Shown in pieces: positions 4,220-56,216 of a stretch of DNA of 64,000 bases. The position numbers were made by a program, and so were the translations under genes. The DNA is from Alphaproteobacteria bacterium (GTDB taxonomy: Bacteria; Pseudomonadota; Alphaproteobacteria; JAAXGF01): the NCBI GenBank assembly GCA_963555825.3, contig CAUVXB020000001.1, positions 832,001 through 896,000 of the forward strand, in the 5' to 3' direction. Position 1 is the first letter of the stretch. Every line of letters starts with the position of its first letter. Under the pieces are notes generated by a model. That model was not told the origin of the DNA, did no database searches, and saw only the letters and a list, made by a program, of their open reading frames with translations.

Positions 4220-4307
4220 TGTTTTGTTCCAGTTTATAACTGAGATTCGACACAAGAGATGCGCCGCATCTTCGTATTGGTTCTGAGCGTTCTCGCTGTC
4301 CTCGCTA

Positions 4308-5486
4308 GTGTCCTGATCGATAAATTGATATGATTATGTCTCTATTTGTTTTTAGGAGGCGCGATTGATGGCGAGAGTGGCGGTGACGATCTCTTTGAGC
4401 GATGACGAGCGCGCCGAATTGGAGGCGCTGTCTCGTCGTCGCAAGACGTCGCAGGGGCTTGCGCGGCGGGCTCGGATCGTCTTGGCGGCGGCGGAAGGGT
4501 TGGAGAACAAGGAGATCGCCGTTCGTCTCGAGGCGAGCGCGGACACCGTGGGCAAGTGGCGTCGCCGCTATGCGGCGGAGGGCCTCGACGGTCTGTACGA
4601 CGAACCCCGCCCCGGCGCGCCGCGTCAAATCGGCGATGACGCCATCGCGGAAGCGGTCCGGCTGACGCTGGAAGAGACGCCGCCGGACGCGACCCATTGG
4701 AGCCTTCGCTCGATGGCGCGGGCGAGCGGCCACGCGCCCTCGACCATTCATCGCATCTGGCGGGCCTTCGGCTTGCAGCCGCATCGCTCGGAGACCTTCA
4801 AGCTGTCGAGCGATCCCTTCTTCGTGGAGAAGGTCCGCGACATCGTCGGTCTGTATTTGGCGCCGCCGGATCGTGCCCTGGTTCTCTGTGTCGACGAAAA
4901 GAGCCAGATCCAGGCCCTGGACCGTTCCCAGCCCCTCTTGCCGATGCGCCCCGGGCAGGCGGAGCGGCGCAGCCACGACTACAAGCGCCACGGCACGACC
5001 TCTCTCTTCGCGGCCCTCGACATCGCCACGGGAGAGATCATCGGCAAATGTTTCCCGCGCCATCGGGCCCGAGAGTTCCGCAAATTCCTCGACCTCGTCG
5101 AGGCGAACGTCCCTGCTGATCTCGACATCCACATCGTCATGGACAACTACGGGACCCACAAGACCAAGGCGATCCGCGACTGGTTCGCCAAACGGCCGCG
5201 CTGGCAGGCCCATTTCACACCCACCAGCGCCTCCTGGCTGAACCAGGTCGAGCGCTGGTTCGGGCTGCTGACCGACAAGCAGATCAGGCGCGGCGTCCAT
5301 CGCTCCACCAAGGAGTTGGAGCGCACCATCCTCGACTACATCGACACGACAAACCAGAACCCCAAACCCTTCAAATGGACCAAATCCGCCGATGACATCC
5401 TCGGCGCCATCCAGCGCTTCTGCCTCCGAACAATCGAAATCGCTGAACAGCAGGCGAAAATCATGCGAACTTCGGAATCGGGACAC
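4308..5486 (+). mobile_element. IS630 family element, copy 1 (1179 bp)
   Basis: Terminal IRs GTGTCC...GGACAC with TA duplicated (4306-4307, 5487-5488). Same length and translated transposase as the copy at 40264-41442. Confidence 0.95.
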
Positions 5487-5489
5487 TAG
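4368..5489 (+). CDS. IS630 family transposase
   Basis: HTH N-terminus; [25 protein letters not shown] motifs. The stop codon uses the target TA. Confidence 0.95.
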
Positions 5490-8544: not shown

Positions 8545-11099
<2,555 letters not shown>

Positions 11100-11362
11100 C
11101 GCTCAACCCCCTTACAGCCGATAGGATACGCCGCATCGCAAGATTGGGGAATACCGGATGACAAAGGCAATACACGGGCAAAAAGCTGAACCACCAATGT
11201 CGGTTGTGGGTAATCGGCTCAAAGCAGACATGTTCCGCTAATGAGCAGACATTCCTGGCGTTGTTTCGGCGAATTTTCTAACTGAGAGATGATCAACACG
11301 ACCAAGGGTGCAAACGGTGAGTCGGACCCGATTTCCTTGGACACAGAATTGGCTTAATCGAA

Positions 11363-11794
11363 GTGTCCAAGGAGGACCGGAACATGACCGACAATTTTGA
11401 GAACAAAGTTGCTGTTGATGGGCCTGTGGTAAACGAGGGCGAGCTTGGCTCGTCCACGTTTTCCCCGGGCCAGGTTTCGCCGGCAGGCCCGCTGGGACTT
11501 GGCCAGCGGTGGACGGTGACGCGCAAGCGTGAGGTTGCCCTGCGGCTTTTGCGTGGCGAGCCGGTGGAACTTTTGTCGCGGCAGTTGGGCGTGGAGATTT
11601 TCCGGCTCGAGCAGTGGCGTGAGAAGGCGATCGCCGGGATCGATGCCTCGCTCAAGGAACGCAAGGGCGATCCGGTGAAGGCGGAACTGGACATCGCCAT
11701 GAAGCGGATCGGGGAGTTGATCATGCAGGTGGAACTGCTGGAGGCCAAGACGGAGACGTCCGGCCCTTTGGGGCGGCGGAGGTCGCGGCGATGA
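11363..11794 (+). CDS. IS3-like OrfA (HTH)
   Basis: RWTVTRKREVALRLLRGE HTH followed by a coiled coil; ATGA overlap with OrfB. Confidence 0.85.
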   Translation: MSKEDRNMTDNFENKVAVDGPVVNEGELGSSTFSPGQVSPAGPLGLGQRWTVTRKREVALRLLRGEPVELLSRQLGVEIFRLEQWREKAIAGIDASLKERKGDPVKAELDIAMKRIGELIMQVELLEAKTETSGPLGRRRSRR

Positions 11795-30805: not shown

Positions 30806-31216
30806 CTGGGAAGCCTCTTGATTTTCGCCTGCCACGGACGGAAACGAGACGTCGCGGCCAGCGGGCGACACCGCCGCCCGGGCCTACAATTTCCACAACC
30901 GAAACGTCAAACCTGGCCGCAAACGACTATAAAACAGCCGCCTATGCGGCTAACTTCGCGCCGATGCGCCCCCATGGGCGCGCCGACGGCTATCGATCGC
31001 CCCACGCTTAGTTGTTTTTGGCAACGCCCGATTGAAGCATTTCGCGGCAATCTGTTGCGGCATTGTGGCGATTGATACGGATTCGCAAACGTCATTAATC
31101 CCCGAACTATATCCGATCATCGACGGGGCGGTAAAAAGTCGATTCCTCATGAGAGTCGGCTGGATTATAATTGAGTCGGACCCGATTTCCTTGGACACAG
31201 AATTGGCTTAATCGAA

Positions 31217-31648
31217 GTGTCCAAGGAGGACCGGAACATGACCGACAATTTTGAGAACAAAGTTGCTGTTGATGGGCCTGTGGTAAACGAGGGCGAGCTT
31301 GGCTCGTCCACGTTTTCCCCGGGCCAGGTTTCGCCGGCAGGCCCGCTGGGACTTGGCCAGCGGTGGACGGTGACGCGCAAGCGTGAGGTTGCCCTGCGGC
31401 TTTTGCGTGGCGAGCCGGTGGAACTTTTGTCGCGGCAGTTGGGCGTGGAGATTTTCCGGCTCGAGCAGTGGCGTGAGAAGGCGATCGCCGGGATCGATGC
31501 CTCGCTCAAGGAACGCAAGGGCGATCCGGTGAAGGCGGAACTGGACATCGCCATGAAGCGGATCGGGGAGTTGATCATGCAGGTGGAACTGCTGGAGGCC
31601 AAGACGGAGACGTCCGGCCCTTTGGGGCGGCGGAGGTCGCGGCGATGA
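31217..31648 (+). CDS. IS3-like OrfA
   Basis: Same translation as 11363-11794. Confidence 0.85.
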   Translation: MSKEDRNMTDNFENKVAVDGPVVNEGELGSSTFSPGQVSPAGPLGLGQRWTVTRKREVALRLLRGEPVELLSRQLGVEIFRLEQWREKAIAGIDASLKERKGDPVKAELDIAMKRIGELIMQVELLEAKTETSGPLGRRRSRR

Positions 31649-32556
31649 GTGCCGCCACCTCTCCCGGCACGGGTTTGGCCTACGGCCTCCAGCGGGTCTG
31701 TGCGGCCTGGGGTTTTGCCCGTTCCTCGTTCTACGCCATGAAATCCCGGCAGCAGGCCACCGCTGAGCGCCCACCAGCAAAGCGCCGGGGACCGAAGCCC
31801 TCGATCTCGGACGAGGCTCTGCTGGTGGCCATCGAGGCCGACCTGGAGGCATCCCCCTGGGAGGGCGAGGGACACCGCAAGGTCTGGGCTCGGCTTCGGG
31901 TCTGTCGTGGCATCCGTGTTTCCCGCAAGCGGGGGCTCCGGGTGATGCGCGAGAACAACCTGCTCTCGCCCCATCGCTGCCGCCGCCGTGGCGGAAATCC
32001 CCATGTCGGTGAGATCATCACCCATGCCCCCAACCTCATGTGGGGCACGGACGGCGTTCGGGTGTTCACGGTGGACGACGGCTGGGGCTGGATATTCACC
32101 GCCATCGAGCATTGGAACGCCGAGTGCGTCGGCTGGCATGTGTGCAAGCGAGGCGACCGCTTCGCCGCCCTTCAGCCGATCTCCATGGGGCTTGCGAGGC
32201 TGTATGCCTCGACCTCCGCCGGTGCGGCGCGGGGGCTGGCCTTGCGGATGGATCACGGCTCCCAGTATCTGTCGGACCACTTCACCAACCAGATCAAGTT
32301 CTGGGGCATCCAGCCGTCCTACGCCTTCGTCGAACAGCCCCAGACCAACGGCGTCGCCGAGAGGTTCAATCGCACGCTCAAGGAACAGATCATCCATGGC
32401 CGCATCTACCGCAACATCGCGGAGCTGCGGAACGCCGTCCGCGGGTTCGTCGAACAGTACAATGCCCAGTGGATCGTGGAGAAGAACGGCTACCTGAGCC
32501 CCGCTCAAGCTCGTCAGGCGTGGCACACCGCGATGTCACTCAGGCCCGCCGCATGA
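31645..32556 (+). CDS. IS3-like OrfB DDE transposase
   Basis: Same translation as 11791-12702. Confidence 0.92.
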   Translation: MSAATSPGTGLAYGLQRVCAAWGFARSSFYAMKSRQQATAERPPAKRRGPKPSISDEALLVAIEADLEASPWEGEGHRKVWARLRVCRGIRVSRKRGLRVMRENNLLSPHRCRRRGGNPHVGEIITHAPNLMWGTDGVRVFTVDDGWGWIFTAIEHWNAECVGWHVCKRGDRFAALQPISMGLARLYASTSAGAARGLALRMDHGSQYLSDHFTNQIKFWGIQPSYAFVEQPQTNGVAERFNRTLKEQIIHGRIYRNIAELRNAVRGFVEQYNAQWIVEKNGYLSPAQARQAWHTAMSLRPAA

Positions 32557-32610
32557 GACAAACTTGTGTCCAAGGAACCGGGTGCGATACAGGCTGGATT
32601 ATAATTGTGC

Positions 32611-34215
32611 ATGTTTACTTTACGCGACCGACGGACTGGGGAATTGTTTGATCGCTGGTCCGATTTCGGGGACAAACGTCGGCGCCTGATGGAGCAATCC
32701 TGGGCCGGGGTTTTTCGGAACCATCTGCTTGTCGAACTTCCGGTTGACGATCTTTGCCGTCACCTTGATGAACGCATGGGCCGACCATCGAAGGATCTAC
32801 ACGTTGTCATCGGGGTCTTGCTTTTGCAGCAGCTGCACGATCTGAGCGATGCAGAGACCGTCGAGGCCCTGGCCTTCAATATGGCGTGGCACTATGCCTT
32901 GGACGTGCGCAGCGAAGCGGACAGCTATTTCTGTGAGAAAACCCTGCGCAACTATCGCCGTCTGTTTATCGAACAAGGTCTCGATGAATTGCTGTTCCGG
33001 TGTTTGACGGATCGGCTGGTGCAGGGGTTCTCTGTCGATACCAGCCACCAACGCATGGATTCGACGGCCCTTCGTTCGGCAATGCGGGCGCTGACACGAC
33101 TTGGTATCGTTGTTGAGAGCATCTCGAAGTTTGCCCGTGAGCTTGAGCGATATCATCCCGGTCTGCACGAGCAGATCAGCAAGGAGGTGATCCGCCGCTA
33201 TGTCGATCGCGAGGGTAATGGCGCGTTCGCGAATACGGCGCCGAGTGTTTCAAAACGGCGCCTCGGCGAAGCGGGTCAGTATCTCCTAGCCCTGGTGCTG
33301 CAATTCCGTGACACGGCGGCGGCAAAGCTTTCCAGTTTTGCGATCCTGGAGAGGGTTCTGCGCGATCAGTTCGAGATCGTTGATGATGAGTATGGCGATC
33401 GTGACGCAACGCGCGCCGCGATTCGAGATCCAAAGGATGTGCCGTGCGATACCGTCGGCAATCCGGCCGACCCGGACGCGAGCTACAACGCGCACAAGGG
33501 TCAAGGATACATGGCGCAGATCGTCGAAACCTATTGTGAAGATGTCAGTAACGAGGCGGTTGCCGCGACACCGGACCTCATCACCCACGTGGAGGTCCAC
33601 AAGATGACGGTGCATGACGGCCATCGCTTAGCCGATGCGCTGGATGATCTGAGCGAGCGCGCGCTGACGCCGGCGGTGATGCTGGGTGATTCACATTACG
33701 GTTCCAGTGACAACATGGCTCTGACGCGCGAACAGAACATCAATCTCGTGGCGCCCGCACGACCGCCGAAAGGCGCCGTCTCGGGACGGTTGACGTTGGA
33801 GGATTTCACTCTCAACGAAGAAGGCTTGGTCTTGCGCTGTCCCAATAACGTCGAACCGGTTTCAGCCTCGCTCGCCAAAGCCAAGCTGCAGGCCCGTTTC
33901 GACCTCTCCATCTGCCAAAAATGTCCCGATATACTGCGATGTCCCGTGCAGGCGGCCAAGCGTGACGGCCAATTTTCCCGCTTTCAATATACCCCGGCCA
34001 GGGCTGCCAACCAAAAGCGCCGGCTTTATGAACAAAGCGATGCCTTCCGCAACGTCTACAGATGGCGGGCCGGCATAGAAGCGACCATGTCGCGATTAAA
34101 GTACCAGATGAACCTGGCTCACCTACGCATTCGCGGCATGCCGGCCATGCGCTACGTGGTCAATCTGCGTGCCCTCGGCCTCAATATCCGACGCTGCGCG
34201 GCAATCGCACCATAA
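32611..34215 (+). CDS. DDE transposase (DUF772-like N-terminus, IS1182/IS4-like)
   Basis: MGRPS..LSDAETVE, QRMDST, DPDASY, LGDSHYGS, Cys cluster, YRWRAGIEATMSRLK. Family assignment is tentative. Confidence 0.88.
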   Translation: MFTLRDRRTGELFDRWSDFGDKRRRLMEQSWAGVFRNHLLVELPVDDLCRHLDERMGRPSKDLHVVIGVLLLQQLHDLSDAETVEALAFNMAWHYALDVRSEADSYFCEKTLRNYRRLFIEQGLDELLFRCLTDRLVQGFSVDTSHQRMDSTALRSAMRALTRLGIVVESISKFARELERYHPGLHEQISKEVIRRYVDREGNGAFANTAPSVSKRRLGEAGQYLLALVLQFRDTAAAKLSSFAILERVLRDQFEIVDDEYGDRDATRAAIRDPKDVPCDTVGNPADPDASYNAHKGQGYMAQIVETYCEDVSNEAVAATPDLITHVEVHKMTVHDGHRLADALDDLSERALTPAVMLGDSHYGSSDNMALTREQNINLVAPARPPKGAVSGRLTLEDFTLNEEGLVLRCPNNVEPVSASLAKAKLQARFDLSICQKCPDILRCPVQAAKRDGQFSRFQYTPARAANQKRRLYEQSDAFRNVYRWRAGIEATMSRLKYQMNLAHLRIRGMPAMRYVVNLRALGLNIRRCAAIAP

Positions 34216-34372
34216 AAAACGAAGCCAAGGAGAAGCCAAGGGTAGGTAATATCAGGTTTTATCCACCAGCAACGCGGAGACAGGCAAATATTCTTCACCG
34301 AACCGCAAAGACCTGTACAAGCACGCCATCGGCCAACAACTTTTTACCGCCCCGTCGATCATCTCACATCAC

Positions 34373-39529: not shown

Positions 39530-40264
39530 ATGACAGGGGCAAGGGCGCTGGCAGGCGCCGTGGTCACCGTCGGCCTGCTGGCGCAGGCGGTCCTTGCGAA
39601 CCCCGCCCGGGCGGACGAAACGATCGAGGCCTTCCTGGCCCGCGTCGAGGCGGCCTATGCCGCGCCCGACCCGGCGGCCGCGATGGCCGAGCTCTTTCAT
39701 CTCGAGGGCGTCGATGCGGAGACGCGCGAAACTTACGACACGAGACTGATTCCTCACTTGCTGCGCGGGCATGACGCGCCGACCGTCGGCACCGAGCCGG
39801 TGCCCGACGATTTCGACCCGCTCTACGTGCTGAACGGCTATGAATACCGCCCCAACCTGGCGCCACTCGGCTACGTGGTGATCGACGGCACGACCAAGGC
39901 GGTCTACGGCCGGCGCGACGATGGTCGCTACTACTTCGTCGGCACGACCCGCACGGCGGTCAACCCCGACGGACCGCCCGACCGCATGCTGCAGATGATG
40001 CTGGTCGGTCAGGCCAGCCCGCCGGTCAACTACACCGGCCATTGCGACGTCATGCAGAGCAACGGCAAGATCAAGCGCATGGAGCTCGAGGACAACGGCC
40101 ACGGCAACACCACCGCGATCATCATGGGCCAGTACATCGAGCGCTGCGAAGTGACCAATGATTCGGCCCGCGGCTCGCTTTGGCTCAGACTCCAGGAGGG
40201 CGAGGAGACGGTCTTCGACGAGCGCATCGAGACGCCGGCGACGCGGCTCAGCTACCGCCGCTAG
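39530..40264 (+). CDS. Hypothetical exported protein
   Basis: Signal peptide ending ARA-D, host-like codon usage, GGAGG RBS. Its TAG stop is the IS630 target and remains intact. Confidence 0.7.
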
Positions 40265-41382
40265 TGTCCCGATTCCGAAGTTCGCATGATTTTCGCCTGC
40301 TGTTCAGCGATTTCGATTGTTCGGAGGCAGAAGCGCTGGATGGCGCCGAGGATGTCATCGGCGGATTTGGTCCATTTGAAGGGTTTGGGGTTCTGGTTTG
40401 TCGTGTCGATGTAGTCGAGGATGGTGCGCTCCAACTCCTTGGTGGAGCGATGGACGCCGCGCCTGATCTGCTTGTCGGTCAGCAGCCCGAACCAGCGCTC
40501 GACCTGGTTCAGCCAGGAGGCGCTGGTGGGTGTGAAATGGGCCTGCCAGCGCGGCCGTTTGGCGAACCAGTCGCGGATCGCCTTGGTCTTGTGGGTCCCG
40601 TAGTTGTCCATGACGATGTGGATGTCGAGATCAGCAGGGACGTTCGCCTCGACGAGGTCGAGGAATTTGCGGAACTCTCGGGCCCGATGGCGCGGGAAAC
40701 ATTTGCCGATGATCTCTCCCGTGGCGATGTCGAGGGCCGCGAAGAGAGAGGTCGTGCCGTGGCGCTTGTAGTCGTGGCTGCGCCGCTCCGCCTGCCCGGG
40801 GCGCATCGGCAAGAGGGGCTGGGAACGGTCCAGGGCCTGGATCTGGCTCTTTTCGTCGACACAGAGAACCAGGGCACGATCCGGCGGCGCCAAATACAGA
40901 CCGACGATGTCGCGGACCTTCTCCACGAAGAAGGGATCGCTCGACAGCTTGAAGGTCTCCGAGCGATGCGGCTGCAAGCCGAAGGCCCGCCAGATGCGAT
41001 GAATGGTCGAGGGCGCGTGGCCGCTCGCCCGCGCCATCGAGCGAAGGCTCCAATGGGTCGCGTCCGGCGGCGTCTCTTCCAGCGTCAGCCGGACCGCTTC
41101 CGCGATGGCGTCATCGCCGATTTGACGCGGCGCGCCGGGGCGGGGTTCGTCGTACAGACCGTCGAGGCCCTCCGCCGCATAGCGGCGACGCCACTTGCCC
41201 ACGGTGTCCGCGCTCGCCTCGAGACGAACGGCGATCTCCTTGTTCTCCAACCCTTCCGCCGCCGCCAAGACGATCCGAGCCCGCCGCGCAAGCCCCTGCG
41301 ACGTCTTGCGACGACGAGACAGCGCCTCCAATTCGGCGCGCTCGTCATCGCTCAAAGAGATCGTCACCGCCACTCTCGCCAT
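40261..41382 (-). CDS. IS630 family transposase
   Basis: Same translation as copy 1. Confidence 0.95.
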
Positions 41383-41442
41383 CAATCGCGCCTCCTAAAA
41401 ACAAATAGAGACATAATCATATCAATTTATCGATCAGGACAC
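40264..41442 (-). mobile_element. IS630 family element, copy 2 (1179 bp)
   Basis: Inverted copy of 4308-5486; TA at 40262-40263 and 41443-41444. Confidence 0.95.
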
Positions 41443-41445
41443 TAG

Positions 41446-48300: not shown

Positions 48301-51091
48301 TTACTTCGGTGTTCCGCCCTCGCCAACCACGACGAACGGTGCCCAGAACATGGGGTGGGCGAAATGATCTTTCCCCTCGGTCGCCATCATCGCCAGCATG
48401 GAACGGCGCAGCGCCTCTGCGCGACCGACGCCCGGCGCCTTCGCCATCTCGTCGAGCATCCCGGTGGTGATGGCGACAGCCGCCTCGGAGTTCACGGACC
48501 AGTGCGAGACCAACAGTGCCCGTGCCCCGGCGTAGAAGAACGCCTTGGCGAGGCCCGACAACCCCTCGGCCCCCGGCGTGCCGTCGGCGGCGGCGGTGTT
48601 GCAGGCCGACAGGATCACCCAGTCGGCGTCGAGGTCGAGGGTGGCGATCTCGCTCGCCGTCAGCAGGCCGTCATCGGCCTCCGAACCCTCGTCGGGCGGC
48701 GTCAGCACCAGGGCTGGCTCGGCAACGCCCTTGAGATCACCGGCGACGAGGCCGTGGGTGGCGAAGGCGAGAATACGGTAGCTGGAGAGGTCCATGGAGC
48801 GCGCCTGCGTCTCGGTGGCGCGCTCCTGCAAGTAGACTGCCGTGTCATCGGCGCCCTGGGCCAACGCCAGCGACTTGATCTCGCCCGCCGTGTCGGGCAG
48901 CCGGGCCAGGTCCCGCACCGCACCGACATCGGCCACGACGCCGCGTGTAAACAGCGCAGCGACATCGATGCCCCGGCCCTTTCCAGGATCGCCCTTGAGC
49001 TTGGGGTCGCCGAAGCCGATGAATGGACGCGACGCCAGCGTGGCCTTGGCGAAGCGGCGCAGGGCGCGCAGCGACGAGACCGAAGGCAACACGGTCATGG
49101 CGTATTTCTTCGCCAGCCATTCGACATCGCGATAGGCCGAGAACTTCCGCACCCGGCCCTTGGGCTGCTCGGTAATCAGTACGCCAAGTGGCAGGCTCTG
49201 GAGCGCCCCATCGGGCACCACGAAGACGTGGCGCGCGCCTTCGAGCATCGGCGCGGCTGGAGCGAAGATTTGCTGGTAGAGCGCCACCGCCTCATCGACA
49301 TCGAAGGGCCGGACGTCGCCCAGGCTGCCGACGCCGAACTGATCGAGGCCAGCGCGCACGGACGTGACCGCATCCTCGATCTCCTGTCTGCCGACGTCGA
49401 GGTGGTGGAACGCCGCGTCGTCATGGCGGATCACCCAGAGGTAGGTTCTGTCGTCCCACACGACGTAGGTCATCAGGGCCTCGACGGGGCCGAGAAGGTC
49501 CTGGGTCTCGGAGAGGGAGAGCGGCCTTGGGCTGGCGAGTTCGGCGAACTCGGGAAAGTCCTGGGCGAGCCGCTCGCCGAGCCCACCGATACTCACGTCG
49601 AGCGCCGCAAGATCGTCGCGAAGCTTCGCCTCCGCCTCGCCGTCTCGCTTCTCGGGCGGCTCGCTGACCGCTTGCACCAGCCGGGCGTCGAGGCGTTGCC
49701 ACTGCTCGACGGCGTCCTGGTAGGCCCGCACGGTCCCCGCAAGCGCGTCATCGCCGGTCGCGAAGCGCGCGCCCATACGGGCGACCGCGCCAGCCGCGCT
49801 GGAGGCCTGGGCGAGTTGCCCAACATCGAAGGCTTCCGCAAACAATTCGGTGCGCCGCTCGGGTTCCTTTTCGATGATGGTCTCGACGATGTTGACGTGG
49901 TTCAAAAAGATGACGCGTATGCTTGTCTGCTCCTTGTGCGCCCCAGACGAGCCTGTCGCGCCCGCCCGTCCGGCACGAACCCGGTAGATGGTCGTCGCTC
50001 GGCGAAATTGATCCATAGCCGCCTCGTAGCGGCCTTGGGCGCGGTACAGCTCGGCAAGATTGTTGATGCTCAGGGCGACATCGGGATGATCCGGCCCGAG
50101 CGCCTTCTCCCGGATCGCCAGCGCCCGCTCGTAGAGCGGTTCAGCCTCATCGTATCGGCCCTGATCGTCGTACAGCGCGGCGAGGTTATTGAGGCCGTCG
50201 GCCACATCGGGATGATCCGGCCCGAGAGCCTTTTCCCAGATGGTCAGCGCCCGCTTGTTGAGCGGTTCCGCCGCCTCGTAGCGGCCCTGCACGCGGTACA
50301 GCGCGGCAAGGTTGTGGAGGCTCAGGGCGACATTGGGATGTTCCGGCCGGAGAGCCTTCTCCTGGATGGTCAGCGCCCGATTGTTGAGCGGCTCCATCTC
50401 CTCGTATCGGCCCTGGTCGTAGTACAGCACGGCGAGGTTATTGAGGCCGTTGGCCACATCGGGATGGTCCGGTCCGAGAGCCTTCTCCTTGATTGCAAGT
50501 GCCCGCTTGTAGAGCAGCTCCGCCGCCTCGTAGCGGCCCTGGGCGCGGTACAGCGCGGCGAGGTTGTTGAGGCTCAGGGCGACATCGGGATGGTCCGGCC
50601 CGAGAGCCTTCTCCTTGATTGCAAGTGCCCGCTTGTGGAGCGGCTCCGCCGCCTCGTAGCGGCCTTGGGCGCGGTATAGCTCGGCGAAGTTGCTGAGGCT
50701 CAGGGCAATATCGGGATGTTCCGGCCCGAAAACCTTCTCATCGATGGCCAATGCCCGCTTGTAGAGCGGTTCAGCCGCCTCGTATCGGCCCCGCTGGTGG
50801 TACAGCCCGGCGAGGTTGTTGAGGCTCGTGGCGACATCGGGATGGTCTGGCCCTAGAGCCTTCTCCCAGATGGCCAGCGCCCGCCTGTGGAGTGGCTCCG
50901 CCGCCTCGTAGCGGCCCTGATTGTGGTAAAGCTCGGCGAGGTTGTTGAGGCTTAGGGCGACATCGGGATGGTCCGGCCCGAATACCTTCTCCCGGATCGC
51001 CAGCGCCCGCCTGTAGAGCGGCTCCACCGCCTCGTAGCGGCCCTGGTCGTTGTACAGCGCAGCGAGGTTGTTGAGGCTCGTGGCGACATCG
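48301..51091 (-). pseudogene. TPR-repeat + CHAT (caspase-HetF) protease, 5'-truncated by the IS cluster
   Basis: 42-aa TPRs (HPDVAxSLNNLA), VPDGALQSLP, FATHG and LSACNT dyad, HPMFWAPFVVVG. The TPR frame runs directly into the IS256 end with no natural start. Confidence 0.88.
50020..51091 (-). repeat. 126-bp tandem coding repeats (about 8-9 TPR units)
   Basis: Recurring ACATCGGGAT/GAGAGCCTTCTC blocks at 126-bp spacing. Confidence 0.9.
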
Positions 51092-51112
51092 GGAGAGCTA
51101 TAACCGAATCTT

Positions 51113-52913
51113 GACGGGGCGGTAAAAAGTTGTTGGCCGATGGCGTGCTTGTACAGGTCTTTGCGGTTCGGTGAAGAATATTTGCCTGTCTCCGCGTTGC
51201 TGGTGGATAAAACCTGATATTACCTACCCTTGGCTTCTCCTTGGCTTCGTTTTTTATGGTGCGATTGCCGCGCAGCGTCGGATATTGAGGCCGAGGGCAC
51301 GCAGATTGACCACGTAGCGCATGGCCGGCATGCCGCGAATGCGTAGGTGAGCCAGGTTCATCTGGTACTTTAATCGCGACATGGTCGCTTCTATGCCGGC
51401 CCGCCATCTGTAGACGTTGCGGAAGGCATCGCTTTGTTCATAAAGCCGGCGCTTTTGGTTGGCAGCCCTGGCCGGGGTATATTGAAAGCGGGAAAATTGG
51501 CCGTCACGCTTGGCCGCCTGCACGGGACATCGCAGTATATCGGGACATTTTTGGCAGATGGAGAGGTCGAAACGGGCCTGCAGCTTGGCTTTGGCGAGCG
51601 AGGCTGAAACCGGTTCGACGTTATTGGGACAGCGCAAGACCAAGCCTTCTTCGTTGAGAGTGAAATCCTCCAACGTCAACCGTCCCGAGACGGCGCCTTT
51701 CGGCGGTCGTGCGGGCGCCACGAGATTGATGTTCTGTTCGCGCGTCAGAGCCATGTTGTCACTGGAACCGTAATGTGAATCACCCAGCATCACCGCCGGC
51801 GTCAGCGCGCGCTCGCTCAGATCATCCAGCGCATCGGCTAAGCGATGGCCGTCATGCACCGTCATCTTGTGGACCTCCACGTGGGTGATGAGGTCCGGTG
51901 TCGCGGCAACCGCCTCGTTACTGACATCTTCACAATAGGTTTCGACGATCTGCGCCATGTATCCTTGACCCTTGTGCGCGTTGTAGCTCGCGTCCGGGTC
52001 GGCCGGATTGCCGACGGTATCGCACGGCACATCCTTTGGATCTCGAATCGCGGCGCGCGTTGCGTCACGATCGCCATACTCATCATCAACGATCTCGAAC
52101 TGATCGCGCAGAACCCTCTCCAGGATCGCAAAACTGGAAAGCTTTGCCGCCGCCGTGTCACGGAATTGCAGCACCAGGGCTAGGAGATACTGACCCGCTT
52201 CGCCGAGGCGCCGTTTTGAAACACTCGGCGCCGTATTCGCGAACGCGCCATTACCCTCGCGATCGACATAGCGGCGGATCACCTCCTTGCTGATCTGCTC
52301 GTGCAGACCGGGATGATATCGCTCAAGCTCACGGGCAAACTTCGAGATGCTCTCAACAACGATACCAAGTCGTGTCAGCGCCCGCATTGCCGAACGAAGG
52401 GCCGTCGAATCCATGCGTTGGTGGCTGGTATCGACAGAGAACCCCTGCACCAGCCGATCCGTCAAACACCGGAACAGCAATTCATCGAGACCTTGTTCGA
52501 TAAACAGACGGCGATAGTTGCGCAGGGTTTTCTCACAGAAATAGCTGTCCGCTTCGCTGCGCACGTCCAAGGCATAGTGCCACGCCATATTGAAGGCCAG
52601 GGCCTCGACGGTCTCTGCATCGCTCAGATCGTGCAGCTGCTGCAAAAGCAAGACCCCGATGACAACGTGTAGATCCTTCGATGGTCGGCCCATGCGTTCA
52701 TCAAGGTGACGGCAAAGATCGTCAACCGGAAGTTCGACAAGCAGATGGTTCCGAAAAACCCCGGCCCAGGATTGCTCCATCAGGCGCCGACGTTTGTCCC
52801 CGAAATCGGACCAGCGATCAAACAATTCCCCAGTCCGTCGGTCGCGTAAAGTAAACATGCACAATTATAATCCAGCCGACTCTCATGAGGAATCGACTTT
52901 TTACCGCCCCGTC
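51113..52913 (-). mobile_element. 1801-bp IS, copy 2
   Basis: Same IRs as copy 1; GAATCTT duplicated (51106-51112, 52914-52920). Confidence 0.94.
51254..52858 (-). CDS. DDE transposase of the 1801-bp IS
   Basis: Same translation as 32611-34215. Confidence 0.88.
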   Translation of the reverse strand: MFTLRDRRTGELFDRWSDFGDKRRRLMEQSWAGVFRNHLLVELPVDDLCRHLDERMGRPSKDLHVVIGVLLLQQLHDLSDAETVEALAFNMAWHYALDVRSEADSYFCEKTLRNYRRLFIEQGLDELLFRCLTDRLVQGFSVDTSHQRMDSTALRSAMRALTRLGIVVESISKFARELERYHPGLHEQISKEVIRRYVDREGNGAFANTAPSVSKRRLGEAGQYLLALVLQFRDTAAAKLSSFAILERVLRDQFEIVDDEYGDRDATRAAIRDPKDVPCDTVGNPADPDASYNAHKGQGYMAQIVETYCEDVSNEAVAATPDLITHVEVHKMTVHDGHRLADALDDLSERALTPAVMLGDSHYGSSDNMALTREQNINLVAPARPPKGAVSGRLTLEDFTLNEEGLVLRCPNNVEPVSASLAKAKLQARFDLSICQKCPDILRCPVQAAKRDGQFSRFQYTPARAANQKRRLYEQSDAFRNVYRWRAGIEATMSRLKYQMNLAHLRIRGMPAMRYVVNLRALGLNIRRCAAIAP

Positions 52914-53001
52914 GAATCTTGTGTACGGCGTTGAAATGAAGGCGGCGTATCCTGGTGATTGTTGATGTCACCACTTGAGCTAAGCCAAGGAAGGATACGC
53001 C

Positions 53002-54246
53002 ATGAAAGAGAATACCGTTGTTGCTTTTCAAAACCCATCTGATTTTCAGAAAGATCCGTTGACGGAAGTCCTACAAGCTGGAGCTCGCGAGTTGTTGGCC
53101 CAAGCCGTTGAGGCCGAGGTCTCCGTGTTTTTGGGTAGCCATGCGGCGCTTGTTGACGCCGCCGGCCGCCGCCGGGTTGTCCGCAATGGATATCTGCCGG
53201 AACGCTTCATCCAGACCGGGATCGGCCCGGTGAGCGTGCGCCAACCCCGTGTGCGGGACCGGGGGGACGGCGCCATCCGCTTCACGTCGGCGATCCTGCC
53301 GCGCTATCTGCGCCGCGCCAAGAGCCTGGAAGACCTTTTGCCATGGCTGTATCTGAAGGGCATTTCCACCGGCGACTTCGGGGAAGCCTTGGCGGCGCTC
53401 CTGGGGAGCTCCGCGCCGGGGCTTTCGGCCTCCACGATCACCCGGCTGAAAGAGGTCTGGGGGGTTGAGGCGGAGCGCTGGCAACGGCGCGACCTCACGG
53501 CCAAGCGCTACGTCTATTTCTGGGTGGACGGCATCTATTTCAGCGCCCGCATGGAGGAAGAGAAGCAGTGCATCCTGGTGATCGTCGGGGCCACGGACAA
53601 GGGACAGAAGGAACTGATCGCCATCGCCGACGGCTATCGCGAAAGTGAGCAGTCCTGGCTCGAAGTTCTGCTCGATCTCAAGCGGCGCGGCCTTGAAATG
53701 GGTCCGCAACTGGCGCTCGGCGACGGCGCGCTCGGCTTCTGGAAGGCGCTCCGCCAAGTCTACCCAGGCGCCCGCGAGCAACGCTGCTGGGTTCACAAGA
53801 CGGGCAACGTCTTGAACAAGCTGCCCAAGGGTCTGCAAAAGAAAGCCAAGGGGCGCCTGCAAGACATCTGGATGGCCGAAACCAGGAAGGATGCCGAGAG
53901 CGCCTTCGACTTCTTCCTGGAAGCCTACGGGCCGAAGTACGACAAGGCCGCGGCCTGCCTGGCCAAGGACCGCGACGTCCTGCTGACGTTCTACGACTTC
54001 CCCGCCGAGCACTGGAAGCATGTACGCACGACCAACCCCATCGAGAGCACGTTCGCCACGGTTCGTCTGCGCACCTACCGGACCAAGGGCTGCCTGTCGC
54101 GCAAGACGGCGATGGCCATGGTCTTCAAACTATGCCAGTGCGCTCAGAGAAAATGGAGAAAACTCGATGGATCGAACCATCTCGCCGAGATCATTCGCGG
54201 CGTCAAATTCGTAGATGGAGAACGCCAGGATCGCGCCGCCGCATGA
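53002..54246 (+). CDS. IS256 (Mutator) family transposase
   Basis: RNGY, YLKGISTGD, WVDGIY, GDGALGFW, QRCWVHK, RTTNPIES. Confidence 0.95.
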   Translation: MKENTVVAFQNPSDFQKDPLTEVLQAGARELLAQAVEAEVSVFLGSHAALVDAAGRRRVVRNGYLPERFIQTGIGPVSVRQPRVRDRGDGAIRFTSAILPRYLRRAKSLEDLLPWLYLKGISTGDFGEALAALLGSSAPGLSASTITRLKEVWGVEAERWQRRDLTAKRYVYFWVDGIYFSARMEEEKQCILVIVGATDKGQKELIAIADGYRESEQSWLEVLLDLKRRGLEMGPQLALGDGALGFWKALRQVYPGAREQRCWVHKTGNVLNKLPKGLQKKAKGRLQDIWMAETRKDAESAFDFFLEAYGPKYDKAAACLAKDRDVLLTFYDFPAEHWKHVRTTNPIESTFATVRLRTYRTKGCLSRKTAMAMVFKLCQCAQRKWRKLDGSNHLAEIIRGVKFVDGERQDRAAA

Positions 54247-54266
54247 TCAGCCCATACACAACTTTT

Positions 54267-56067
54267 GACGGGGCGGTAAAAAGTTGTTGGCCGATGGCGT
54301 GCTTGTACAGGTCTTTGCGGTTCGGTGAAGAATATTTGCCTGTCTCCGCGTTGCTGGTGGATAAAACCTGATATTACCTACCCTTGGCTTCTCCTTGGCT
54401 TCGTTTTTTATGGTGCGATTGCCGCGCAGCGTCGGATATTGAGGCCGAGGGCACGCAGATTGACCACGTAGCGCATGGCCGGCATGCCGCGAATGCGTAG
54501 GTGAGCCAGGTTCATCTGGTACTTTAATCGCGACATGGTCGCTTCTATGCCGGCCCGCCATCTGTAGACGTTGCGGAAGGCATCGCTTTGTTCATAAAGC
54601 CGGCGCTTTTGGTTGGCAGCCCTGGCCGGGGTATATTGAAAGCGGGAAAATTGGCCGTCACGCTTGGCCGCCTGCACGGGACATCGCAGTATATCGGGAC
54701 ATTTTTGGCAGATGGAGAGGTCGAAACGGGCCTGCAGCTTGGCTTTGGCGAGCGAGGCTGAAACCGGTTCGACGTTATTGGGACAGCGCAAGACCAAGCC
54801 TTCTTCGTTGAGAGTGAAATCCTCCAACGTCAACCGTCCCGAGACGGCGCCTTTCGGCGGTCGTGCGGGCGCCACGAGATTGATGTTCTGTTCGCGCGTC
54901 AGAGCCATGTTGTCACTGGAACCGTAATGTGAATCACCCAGCATCACCGCCGGCGTCAGCGCGCGCTCGCTCAGATCATCCAGCGCATCGGCTAAGCGAT
55001 GGCCGTCATGCACCGTCATCTTGTGGACCTCCACGTGGGTGATGAGGTCCGGTGTCGCGGCAACCGCCTCGTTACTGACATCTTCACAATAGGTTTCGAC
55101 GATCTGCGCCATGTATCCTTGACCCTTGTGCGCGTTGTAGCTCGCGTCCGGGTCGGCCGGATTGCCGACGGTATCGCACGGCACATCCTTTGGATCTCGA
55201 ATCGCGGCGCGCGTTGCGTCACGATCGCCATACTCATCATCAACGATCTCGAACTGATCGCGCAGAACCCTCTCCAGGATCGCAAAACTGGAAAGCTTTG
55301 CCGCCGCCGTGTCACGGAATTGCAGCACCAGGGCTAGGAGATACTGACCCGCTTCGCCGAGGCGCCGTTTTGAAACACTCGGCGCCGTATTCGCGAACGC
55401 GCCATTACCCTCGCGATCGACATAGCGGCGGATCACCTCCTTGCTGATCTGCTCGTGCAGACCGGGATGATATCGCTCAAGCTCACGGGCAAACTTCGAG
55501 ATGCTCTCAACAACGATACCAAGTCGTGTCAGCGCCCGCATTGCCGAACGAAGGGCCGTCGAATCCATGCGTTGGTGGCTGGTATCGACAGAGAACCCCT
55601 GCACCAGCCGATCCGTCAAACACCGGAACAGCAATTCATCGAGACCTTGTTCGATAAACAGACGGCGATAGTTGCGCAGGGTTTTCTCACAGAAATAGCT
55701 GTCCGCTTCGCTGCGCACGTCCAAGGCATAGTGCCACGCCATATTGAAGGCCAGGGCCTCGACGGTCTCTGCATCGCTCAGATCGTGCAGCTGCTGCAAA
55801 AGCAAGACCCCGATGACAACGTGTAGATCCTTCGATGGTCGGCCCATGCGTTCATCAAGGTGACGGCAAAGATCGTCAACCGGAAGTTCGACAAGCAGAT
55901 GGTTCCGAAAAACCCCGGCCCAGGATTGCTCCATCAGGCGCCGACGTTTGTCCCCGAAATCGGACCAGCGATCAAACAATTCCCCAGTCCGTCGGTCGCG
56001 TAAAGTAAACATGCACAATTATAATCCAGCCGACTCTCATGAGGAATCGACTTTTTACCGCCCCGTC
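54267..56067 (-). mobile_element. 1801-bp IS, copy 3
   Basis: Same IRs; AACTTTT duplicated (54260-54266, 56068-56074). Confidence 0.94.
54408..56012 (-). CDS. DDE transposase of the 1801-bp IS
   Basis: Same translation as the other two copies. Confidence 0.88.
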   Translation of the reverse strand: MFTLRDRRTGELFDRWSDFGDKRRRLMEQSWAGVFRNHLLVELPVDDLCRHLDERMGRPSKDLHVVIGVLLLQQLHDLSDAETVEALAFNMAWHYALDVRSEADSYFCEKTLRNYRRLFIEQGLDELLFRCLTDRLVQGFSVDTSHQRMDSTALRSAMRALTRLGIVVESISKFARELERYHPGLHEQISKEVIRRYVDREGNGAFANTAPSVSKRRLGEAGQYLLALVLQFRDTAAAKLSSFAILERVLRDQFEIVDDEYGDRDATRAAIRDPKDVPCDTVGNPADPDASYNAHKGQGYMAQIVETYCEDVSNEAVAATPDLITHVEVHKMTVHDGHRLADALDDLSERALTPAVMLGDSHYGSSDNMALTREQNINLVAPARPPKGAVSGRLTLEDFTLNEEGLVLRCPNNVEPVSASLAKAKLQARFDLSICQKCPDILRCPVQAAKRDGQFSRFQYTPARAANQKRRLYEQSDAFRNVYRWRAGIEATMSRLKYQMNLAHLRIRGMPAMRYVVNLRALGLNIRRCAAIAP

Positions 56068-56216
56068 AACTTTTGACAATAGCTCTTCGACATCGTGGCG
56101 GTAGCTCTAAAGTGCAGTAGGGCCGGTTGACGCGGCGTCAAAGTTAGTACCCACTATCGGCCAAGCGCGCAACCGGGCCGGGCCGGCGACCGCGCCCTTG
56201 GGGGAAGGACGCAGCA

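Follow-up and report, generated by a model that had tools for sequence, protein, structure and literature searches.

The 64,000-nucleotide stretch analyzed here (the window; positions 832,001 to 896,000 of contig CAUVXB020000001.1 from an alphaproteobacterial metagenome-assembled genome [MAG]) contains an IS256-family element, designated IS256-a, whose two terminal inverted repeats (IRs) are each interrupted by a copy of another insertion sequence (IS) of 1801 bp, designated IS-A. Each IS-A copy has its own 7-bp target site duplication (TSD), and the resulting IS-A/IS256-a/IS-A sandwich consists of the following parts.

51095..51105, + strand: outer 11 bp of the left IR of IS256-a (GAGCTATAACC), severed from the remaining IR by IS-A copy 1; this 11-mer is found before the TSD in 38 left IRs of the genome, with a variable base in front of it.
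51106..51112, + strand: first copy of the TSD GAATCTT, equal to IR positions 12 to 18 and repeated at 52914-52920.
51113..52913, - strand: IS-A copy 1, 1801 bp, with perfect 18-bp IRs (GACGGGGCGGTAAAAAGT); transposase gene at 51254-52864, 536 amino acids.
52914..54266, + strand: interior of IS256-a, 1353 bp including both duplicated 7-mers; IS256-family transposase gene at 53002-54246, 414 amino acids.
54267..56067, - strand: IS-A copy 2, identical to copy 1, within the right IR; TSD AACTTTT at 54260-54266 and 56068-56074.
56075..56085, - strand: outer 11 bp of the right IR of IS256-a, forward-strand letters GACAATAGCTC, reverse complement GAGCTATTGTC.

IS-A copies 1 and 2 are in direct orientation; the element as defined lies on the + strand, and its transposase open reading frame (ORF) is on the - strand, which is the one given in the list. 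These coordinates confirm the description in the first-pass annotation of two 1801-bp copies with separate 7-bp TSDs, one in each IR of the same IS256 element. The strings quoted there are present in the window (AGAGCTATAACC at 51094-51105 and GACAATAGCTCT at 56075-56086), but the common offset of 12 bp that it proposed has to be corrected: since the base outside GAGCTAT varies among the genomic copies, the IS256 tip starts at GAGCTAT (G51095 to C56085 in the window) and the offset is 11 bp. The flanks of the sandwich, GCGACATCGGGA and TTCGACATCGTG, show no IS256 target duplication, whereas 18 of the 32 other tabulated IS256 copies are surrounded by a perfect 8- or 9-bp TSD, which indicates that the window locus has been rearranged.

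The elements that serve as targets belong to the IS256 family, as judged from their scores of 320 and 310 bits against the NCBIfam profile NF033543 (320 bits for the IS256-a transposase, with a cut-off of 150, alongside a Pfam Transposase_mut match) and from their 8- or 9-bp (mostly 9-bp) TSDs. The core of IS256-a is present in 32 genomic copies with 100% identity along all 1353 bp; a second targeted element, IS256-b, is 1378 bp long. The IRs are imperfect and span approximately 26 bp, with the left and right ends aligning as GAGCTATnnnCnAAnnTTGTGTAnGG; the string TTGTGTAnGG, in the region of positions 19 to 26, is conserved in both, and the tips of the targeted group follow the pattern GAGCTAT-N4-RAANNTT-GKTG.

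The IS-A transposase combines an N-terminal DUF772 domain (PF05598, residues 59-130) with C-terminal DDE_Tnp_1_6 (PF13751, 425-531) and DDE_Tnp_1 (PF01609, 325-524) domains, all above gathering scores, which is the domain architecture of the IS1182 type. Its best NCBIfam match is the IS1182 profile NF033551, with 173.9 bits and an E value of 5.6e-51, in an alignment of residues 42-533 to profile positions 31-487 of 488. Since this score is below the 270-bit cut-off and the identity to annotated IS1182 transposases on plasmids does not exceed 28%, IS-A is referred to here as “IS1182-like” and not as a confirmed member of the family; the sole closer plasmid relative is a 71% identical homolog in Microvirga sp. 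VF16. Among 25 homologs with identities down to 56%, Asp362 (in a DSHYG motif), Glu492, Tyr485, Arg488, and Lys499 are invariant, as are four cysteines (residues 412, 437, 440, and 446), and Asp152 is nearly invariant (at least 90%) within a DST motif whose Ser153 and Thr154 are invariant. The protein accordingly carries the Y-x2-R-x3-E-x6-K signature and the conserved Asp, Asp, and Glu residues of DDE transposases of the IS4/IS5/IS1182 type. Judging from this conservation, we infer that the DDE triad is formed by Asp152, Asp362, and Glu492, accompanied by a YREK-like signature, and the four-cysteine region is probably a zinc-binding insert. The element has the features of an autonomous IS: perfect 18-bp IRs, matching 7-bp TSDs around 23 of 24 full-length copies, and a total of 42 elements and fragments in the genome.

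The distribution of these copies was assessed in the window's own genome (two contigs, 6.04 Mb; coordinates in it are prefixed C1 or C2), in which IS-A ends were located by BLAST. There are 39 left and 35 right ends, and 38 of the former and 34 of the latter adjoin the same position of an IS256-type IR. The enrichment of IS-A in IS256 IRs that the first-pass annotation expected is thus seen at 72 of 74 junctions, the only exceptions being the two ends of a third IS-A copy in the window, described below. Chaining of the pieces left 33 elements with both ends. The great majority (26) are simple nested insertions in an IS256 IR with matching 7-bp TSDs; the rest comprise three tip-IS-A-tip arrangements, two mixed cases, one insertion in an 84% identical IS256 variant, and one at a unique non-IS site (window copy 3). 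The left end of IS-A faces the IS256 tip 20 times and the right end 17 times, in agreement with the earlier remark that orientation relative to the motif differs among copies, and all six combinations of orientation and occupied IR type (three IR types in two IS256 elements) are populated. The occupancy of the four IRs is as follows.

IS256-a left IR, GAGCTATAACC GAATCTT: occupied in 13 of 38.
IS256-a right IR, GAGCTATTGTC AAAAGTT: occupied in 14 of 43.
IS256-b left IR, GAGCTATAGCT GAATCTT: occupied in 10 of 15.
IS256-b right IR, GAGCTATGTCC GAAAGTT GGTGACGG: occupied in 0 of 16.

All but one of the sites in this genome that fit the pattern GAGCTAT-N3-Y-RA-N3-TY are IS256-type tips, which accounts for the confinement of IS-A to IS256 ends in it. 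Chance is excluded as the source of these positions.

The nature of the target becomes clearer from insertions outside IS256, beginning with the third copy in the window.

31122..34356, + strand: IS-A copy 3, in the opposite orientation to copies 1 and 2; transposase gene at 32605-34215 (+); TSD GATCATC at 31115-31121 and 34357-34363; split by an IS3-family element at approximately 31172-32591.

The rebuilt empty site of this copy is a pseudo-palindrome, GAACTAT-ATCC-GATCATC-TCAC-ATCACTC, and because it occurs only once in the genome, copy 3 lies outside any IS end. The first-pass annotation had noted a look-alike motif in front of this copy, and GAACTAT-ATCC does indeed precede its TSD. Alignment of 16 sites that were complete and outside IS256 (11 occupied by IS-A in other MAGs, that of window copy 3, and four of 73% identical homologs in a Rhizobiaceae MAG) revealed a conserved core, with R at TSD position 1 (15 of 16 sites), A at position 2 (16 of 16), T at position 6 (15 of 16), and Y at position 7 (14 of 16), flanked by C at position -1 (13 of 16) and G at position +8 (10 of 16). 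The better GAGCTAT half-site of these sequences matches the motif at a mean of 4.56 of 7 positions compared with a background of 2.33, and the weaker, inverted half-site at a mean of 2.81 compared with 1.10; in neither case was a value as high obtained in any of 5000 resamplings. The target of IS-A is a 29-bp pseudo-palindrome, GAGCTAT-N3-C|RANNNTY|G-N3-ATAGCTC, whose symmetry fits the random orientation of the insertions. The GARCTATW-type motif suggested in the first-pass annotation is therefore part of the target, which extends well beyond it and includes the C|RANNNTY|G core.

The first-pass annotation had also left room for an interaction with bound IS256 transposase. A MAG assigned to Amylibacter carries IS-A at at least 21 loci, although neither an IS256-family transposase match nor a site fitting GAGCTAT-N3-Y-RA-N3-TY was found in it. 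At the junctions of 21 of its loci, ATAGCTC is matched in at least 5 of 7 positions at the right offset in 10 of 40 cases, compared with 0.38 expected (p = 4e-12), and in at least 6 of 7 positions in 6 cases, compared with 0.03 expected (p about 1e-12). The presence of degenerate motif sites in the apparent absence of the IS256 transposase argues that targeting is a property of IS-A itself and follows the DNA sequence, so that the IS256 transposase is not needed. Both the motif and the offset recur among independent insertions, also outside ISs and in other genomes, with the right IR of IS256-b as the exception. An RNA guide was considered and rejected, as IS-A contains no GAGCTAT-like word and its noncoding ends show no complementarity to the target; IS-A and the target have only one string in common, the 9-mer AAAAGTTGT, which in one target is found on the same strand.

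Among the genomes searched, IS-A is sporadic: of 401 genomes sampled from the class, 3 encode the protein, the window's own genome included. A search for related loci yielded 53, and at least one junction could be placed in 16 other genome records. The same IS (97 to 99% amino acid identity) is present in eight other MAG records, and homologs with 52 to 88% identity are found in further records. The MAGs with the near-identical element are titled Rhodospirillales, Paracoccaceae, Amylibacter, and, in several cases, Alphaproteobacteria, and one is a Thermodesulfobacteriota bin; this distribution across families and one other phylum points to either recent horizontal spread in one type of community or binning errors. 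In 12 of the 16 records, which cover both the 97 to 99% identical IS-A and homologs of 71 to 88% identity, the tip at the 11-bp offset is a perfect GAGCTAT, and one more record has GAGATAT. The claim that a GAGCTAT-type motif is recognized, that cleavage occurs at a fixed distance from it, and that IS256 IRs are hit thus holds throughout the own genome as well as in others. Three of four tested flanking ORFs encode IS256-family transposases (302 to 310 bits), all three IS-A copies in record G192 are in IS256 IR contexts, and right IRs that resemble those of IS256-b, with other bases at N4, are occupied in other genomes. Two records contain head-to-tail arrays of IS-A in which the spacer is the 7-bp TSD only (L004, 1444-1451; L036, 1962-1969), indicating that the outer tip and TSD alone were retargeted after the interior of the IR had been displaced.

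On plasmid NZ_CP069355.1 of Microvirga sp. VF16 (L054, 2433-4253), two 18-bp IS256-type tips (GAGCTATGACG) enclose the 71% identical homolog, the IS256 interior being absent, and a 9-bp direct repeat, ATGGAGTGG, borders the entire unit on both sides; the plasmid has no further copy of the tip. The arrangement could be either what a double insertion has left behind or the product of mobilization as a unit by an IS256 transposase. Similar tip-IS-A-tip relics are found in a Jannaschia record (L050) in addition to the three in the own genome. In Logan contigs from four sequencing runs, one of them labeled a sponge metagenome, both ISs reach very high word depth, and loose ends of the uninterrupted IR (GAGCTATAAC before 52913) are seen along with other IS-A/IS256 junctions; the whole sandwich is not bridged, the contigs being too short to span a nested copy, and the only joint that skips 2152, present in one contig (side 21), provides too little support to be used.

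IS-A inserts at one fixed position, with a 7-bp TSD and in both orientations, in a motif common to IS and non-IS sites. We infer that a dimeric DDE transpososome reads the two half-sites and the symmetric core, with one strong half-site plus the core being sufficient for targeting. Two strand transfers staggered by 7 bp would then generate the RANNNTY duplication at a distance of 11 bp from where the strong half-site begins, and random orientation would be expected if the transpososome is made two-fold symmetric by the perfect 18-bp IRs. As the tips of one group of IS256 IRs are near-perfect matches to the target, nearly every IS-A copy is nested in an IS256 IR wherever such an IS256 is present. 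Insertion would place the conserved IR positions 19 to 26 some 1.8 kb away from the tip (positions 1 to 18), and the interrupted IS256 end has probably lost its function, given the conservation of the displaced bases; the immobilization of IS256 and the use of IS ends as safe harbors, both put forward in the first-pass annotation, are conjectural. Copies inserted in direct orientation in both IRs, such as those in the window, could serve as a substrate for homologous recombination, which would delete the IS256 core and leave a tip-IS-A-tip relic.

Taken together, it is very likely that IS-A is an autonomous DDE insertion sequence from a deep IS1182-like clade whose transposase picks its targets by DNA sequence. 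Several observations weigh against this reading. Despite its fit to the motif, the right IR of IS256-b is empty in all 16 copies, a significant difference from the left IR (Fisher p = 7e-5), so the motif as written is not sufficient. At this end (e.g., C1 1814588 and C2 441181), GAGCTATGTCC GAAAGTT is followed by GGTGACG and a second, direct GAGCTAT, 25 bp inside, which overlaps the place of the weak half-site; that the second GAGCTAT acts as a decoy or causes a clash is offered purely as a conjecture, and amplification of left-occupied composites is another possible cause. Allele 306C is carried by 7 of 7 IS-A copies in IS256-b and by only 3 of 17 in IS256-a (p = 3.5e-4), a structuring that could reflect waves of activity in time or some comobilization with IS256-b. 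Pairs of the same haplotype share a target class in 7 of 31 cases compared with 3.9 for shuffled labels (p = 0.08), and the AlphaFold model of the transposase, built from a 25-sequence alignment, is of low confidence (predicted local distance difference test score [pLDDT], 61.7; predicted template modeling score [pTM], 0.36). No informative single nucleotide polymorphisms that separate occupied from empty copies were found in IS256-b.

The string GAGCTATCAGGCGGCGTG is not the right IR of IS256-b but corresponds to the second GAGCTAT in its interior, with an occupancy of 0 of 16; the actual tip, GAGCTATGTCCGAAAGTT, which does fit the motif, is likewise occupied in 0 of 16 copies. A repeated GAGCTAT-containing sequence with 35 copies was dropped as a control, because it belongs to a different repeat, upstream of an IS3-type element, and not to an IS tip, and another with 8 copies was dropped as it has no family match.

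The most serious competing explanation, which is still rather unlikely, is that a few founder insertions were amplified as IS256::IS-A units by the IS256 transposase, acting through the 18 bp of outer IR, so that most copies do not represent independent targeting events. It would account for the contrast between the 67% occupied left IRs and the unoccupied right IRs of IS256-b and for the association of allele 306C with that element, and it agrees with the finding that occupied IS256 copies (six of type a and six of eight of type b) have their own perfect 8- or 9-bp TSDs around the whole unit, although such TSDs fit either the entry of IS-A into a resident IS256 or the movement of the composite as a whole. 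Two haplotype pairs share both class and orientation, and three copies with a G10A change inside the terminal IR of IS-A itself (C1 362140, 493416, and 1654569) are all found, in one and the same orientation, next to the inner part of an IS256-a left IR, which hints at a means of spread different from transposition by IS-A. Yet amplification of founders fits poorly with the occurrence of both orientations at each of the three IR types, and each of the three commonest IS-A haplotypes is found in three different target classes, which means that IS-A moved on its own between them; the permutation test for sharing of classes is not significant. Nor does it explain the same offset in the many IS256 variants of 12 other genome records and the motif at non-IS sites, or why all founders should have hit the same nucleotide. 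Targeting is real, and composite mobilization or successive waves of activity may add to the copy number.

Other explanations carry less weight. Recruitment of the IS-A transposase by an IR-bound IS256 transposase or by an IS256 transposition intermediate would explain the near-exclusive association with IS256 IRs in the own genome as well as the avoidance of one motif-fitting IR, for which pure sequence reading offers no explanation. Such recruitment is improbable in view of the Amylibacter MAG, with its at least 21 copies and neither an IS256-family transposase match nor a perfect motif, of the motif at non-IS loci (in Amylibacter, at window copy 3, and at sites of 67 to 73% identical homologs), and of tandem reinsertion beside a tip that had lost the IR interior. 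If IS-A inserted anywhere and survived only in neutral places such as IS ends, its copies should be scattered over the lengths of ISs and intergenic DNA; instead, all lie between positions 11 and 12 of one type of IR, with a conserved TSD pattern and with the same motif at non-IS sites. This makes random insertion followed by selection very improbable, even in a host that is IS-rich and probably under weak selection and in which other nestings occur (IS256-a in IS-A and an IS3-type element in IS-A). Finally, misjoining of repeats in a metagenome-assembled genome might be suspected from the missing IS256 TSD around the window sandwich and from the difficulty of assembling 1.8-kb repeats. This suspicion can practically be dismissed: the unique flanks differ among approximately 40 insertions, all with correct TSDs, the same junctions are found in independent MAG records and on the complete plasmid of a cultured Microvirga, and the Logan contigs of four runs carry ends of both the empty IR and IS-A/IS256 junctions.

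Most DDE insertion sequences are loose in their choice of target, and long specific targets are known mainly from the RNA-guided IS110/IS1111 elements or from systems with accessory proteins, such as Tn7. The precedents named in the first-pass annotation, IS4321/IS5075 and IS231, are apt, although their enzyme chemistry or their mode of target reading differs from that of IS-A. IS4321 and IS5075, of the IS1111 group in the IS110 family, were reportedly described by Partridge and Hall in 2003 in the 38-bp IRs of Tn21-family transposons; they produce no TSD and insert in a single orientation. Elements of the IS110/IS1111 type use a DEDD recombinase guided by a seekRNA or bridge RNA, according to published accounts. 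Like IS4321/IS5075, IS-A is found in many hosts at a constant position in the terminal IR of a different element, which is presumed crippled by the interruption. It does not belong with them: its transposase is of the DDE type, its insertions run in either orientation and are flanked by a 7-bp TSD, and its noncoding ends are not complementary to the target. IS231A, of the IS4 family, prefers the terminal IR of Tn4430, with the consensus GGG-N5-CCC and a longer TSD. It shares with IS-A a DDE transposase and a roughly symmetric target, defined by sequence or shape, within the IR of another transposon and at look-alike sites elsewhere, but the two differ in IS family, consensus, TSD length, and host element.

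Closer in family, IS1272 of Staphylococcus aureus (IS1182 family) reportedly replaces hairpin-forming IRs without generating a TSD (PMC5678879). IS-A, which is nearest to the IS1182 family, is similar in its nonrandom, IR-related choice of target, whereas it makes a 7-bp TSD at a defined, non-hairpin sequence. ISPse1 of Paracoccus, also of the IS1182 family, is listed with a length of 1653 bp, 16-bp IRs, and 4-bp direct repeats (PMC3281130). IS-A shares with it and with the IS1182 family in general the size class, a single DDE ORF with DUF772 and DDE_Tnp_1_6 domains, and terminal IRs, and stands apart in its profile score, its 7-bp TSD, and its long specific target. Full-text literature searches, at the level of result listings and abstracts and with ISfinder and supplements outside their range, returned no description of an IS1182-like element that targets IS256 IRs. 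Targeting of another element's IR is thus already known, and the IS-A/IS256 pair is new to the literature covered by those listings and abstracts.

With one protein of the DDE type, a pseudo-palindromic target of 29 bp, and insertion exact to the nucleotide, all conserved in homologs down to approximately 71% identity, IS-A offers a tractable model for protein-encoded target selection by transposases of the IS4/IS5/IS1182 type. The 71% identical homolog on the complete plasmid of a cultured Microvirga makes experiments feasible. The colonization, and probable disabling, of one IS family by another also bears on what limits IS blooms in host-restricted bacteria. A tentative extension, which may well not hold, is that the IS-A clade is a specialized hyperparasite of IS256 that has evolved protein-only recognition of at least approximately 14 informative bp diagnostic of IS256 tips; it would disable IS256 ends, erase the core after double hits in direct orientation, and act as a natural brake on IS256 expansions in the genomes of IS-laden symbionts, and its naturally sequence-specific DDE transposase might be retargeted. 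For annotation and assembly there is a practical warning, since miscalls are to be expected for tip-IS-tip relics and for IS256 copies whose IRs are split.

Nesting also occurs in the reverse direction: at C2 2831924-2835108, an IS-A copy contains a copy of IS256-a, with 9 bp of overlap (positions 240-248 of IS-A). IS-A is thus itself a target of IS256, although at no fixed place. The IS3-family element that splits IS-A copy 3 has TG...CA ends and an orfB gene at 31645-32556 (IS3 profile, 150 bits). It is bordered by an apparent 14- to 15-bp duplication of IS-A sequence (GGCTGGATTATAAT; window 31157-31173 and 32584-32598), far longer than the 3 to 5 bp usual for IS3 target duplications. A second IS-A copy in the same genome (C2 1792515-1795962) is split at nearly the same IS-A position, where the IS-A sequence resembles the left end of the IS3 element itself (GAGTCGG).

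The sandwich adjoins one further gene of note, which lies outside the element.

48301..51027, - strand: gene for a protein with TPR_12 and CHAT domains, its 5' part lost at the IS256 insertion.

This gene contains eight 126-bp tandem units, which encode 42-amino-acid TPR_10/TPR_12 repeats (window 50018-51199). The window as a whole is very IS-rich; its other repeats include a 1185-bp perfect inverted pair (4305-5489 and 40261-41445), a 276-nucleotide direct pair with a spacing of 369 bp (8545-9189), and a second copy of the start of the IS3-type element (11318-11617).

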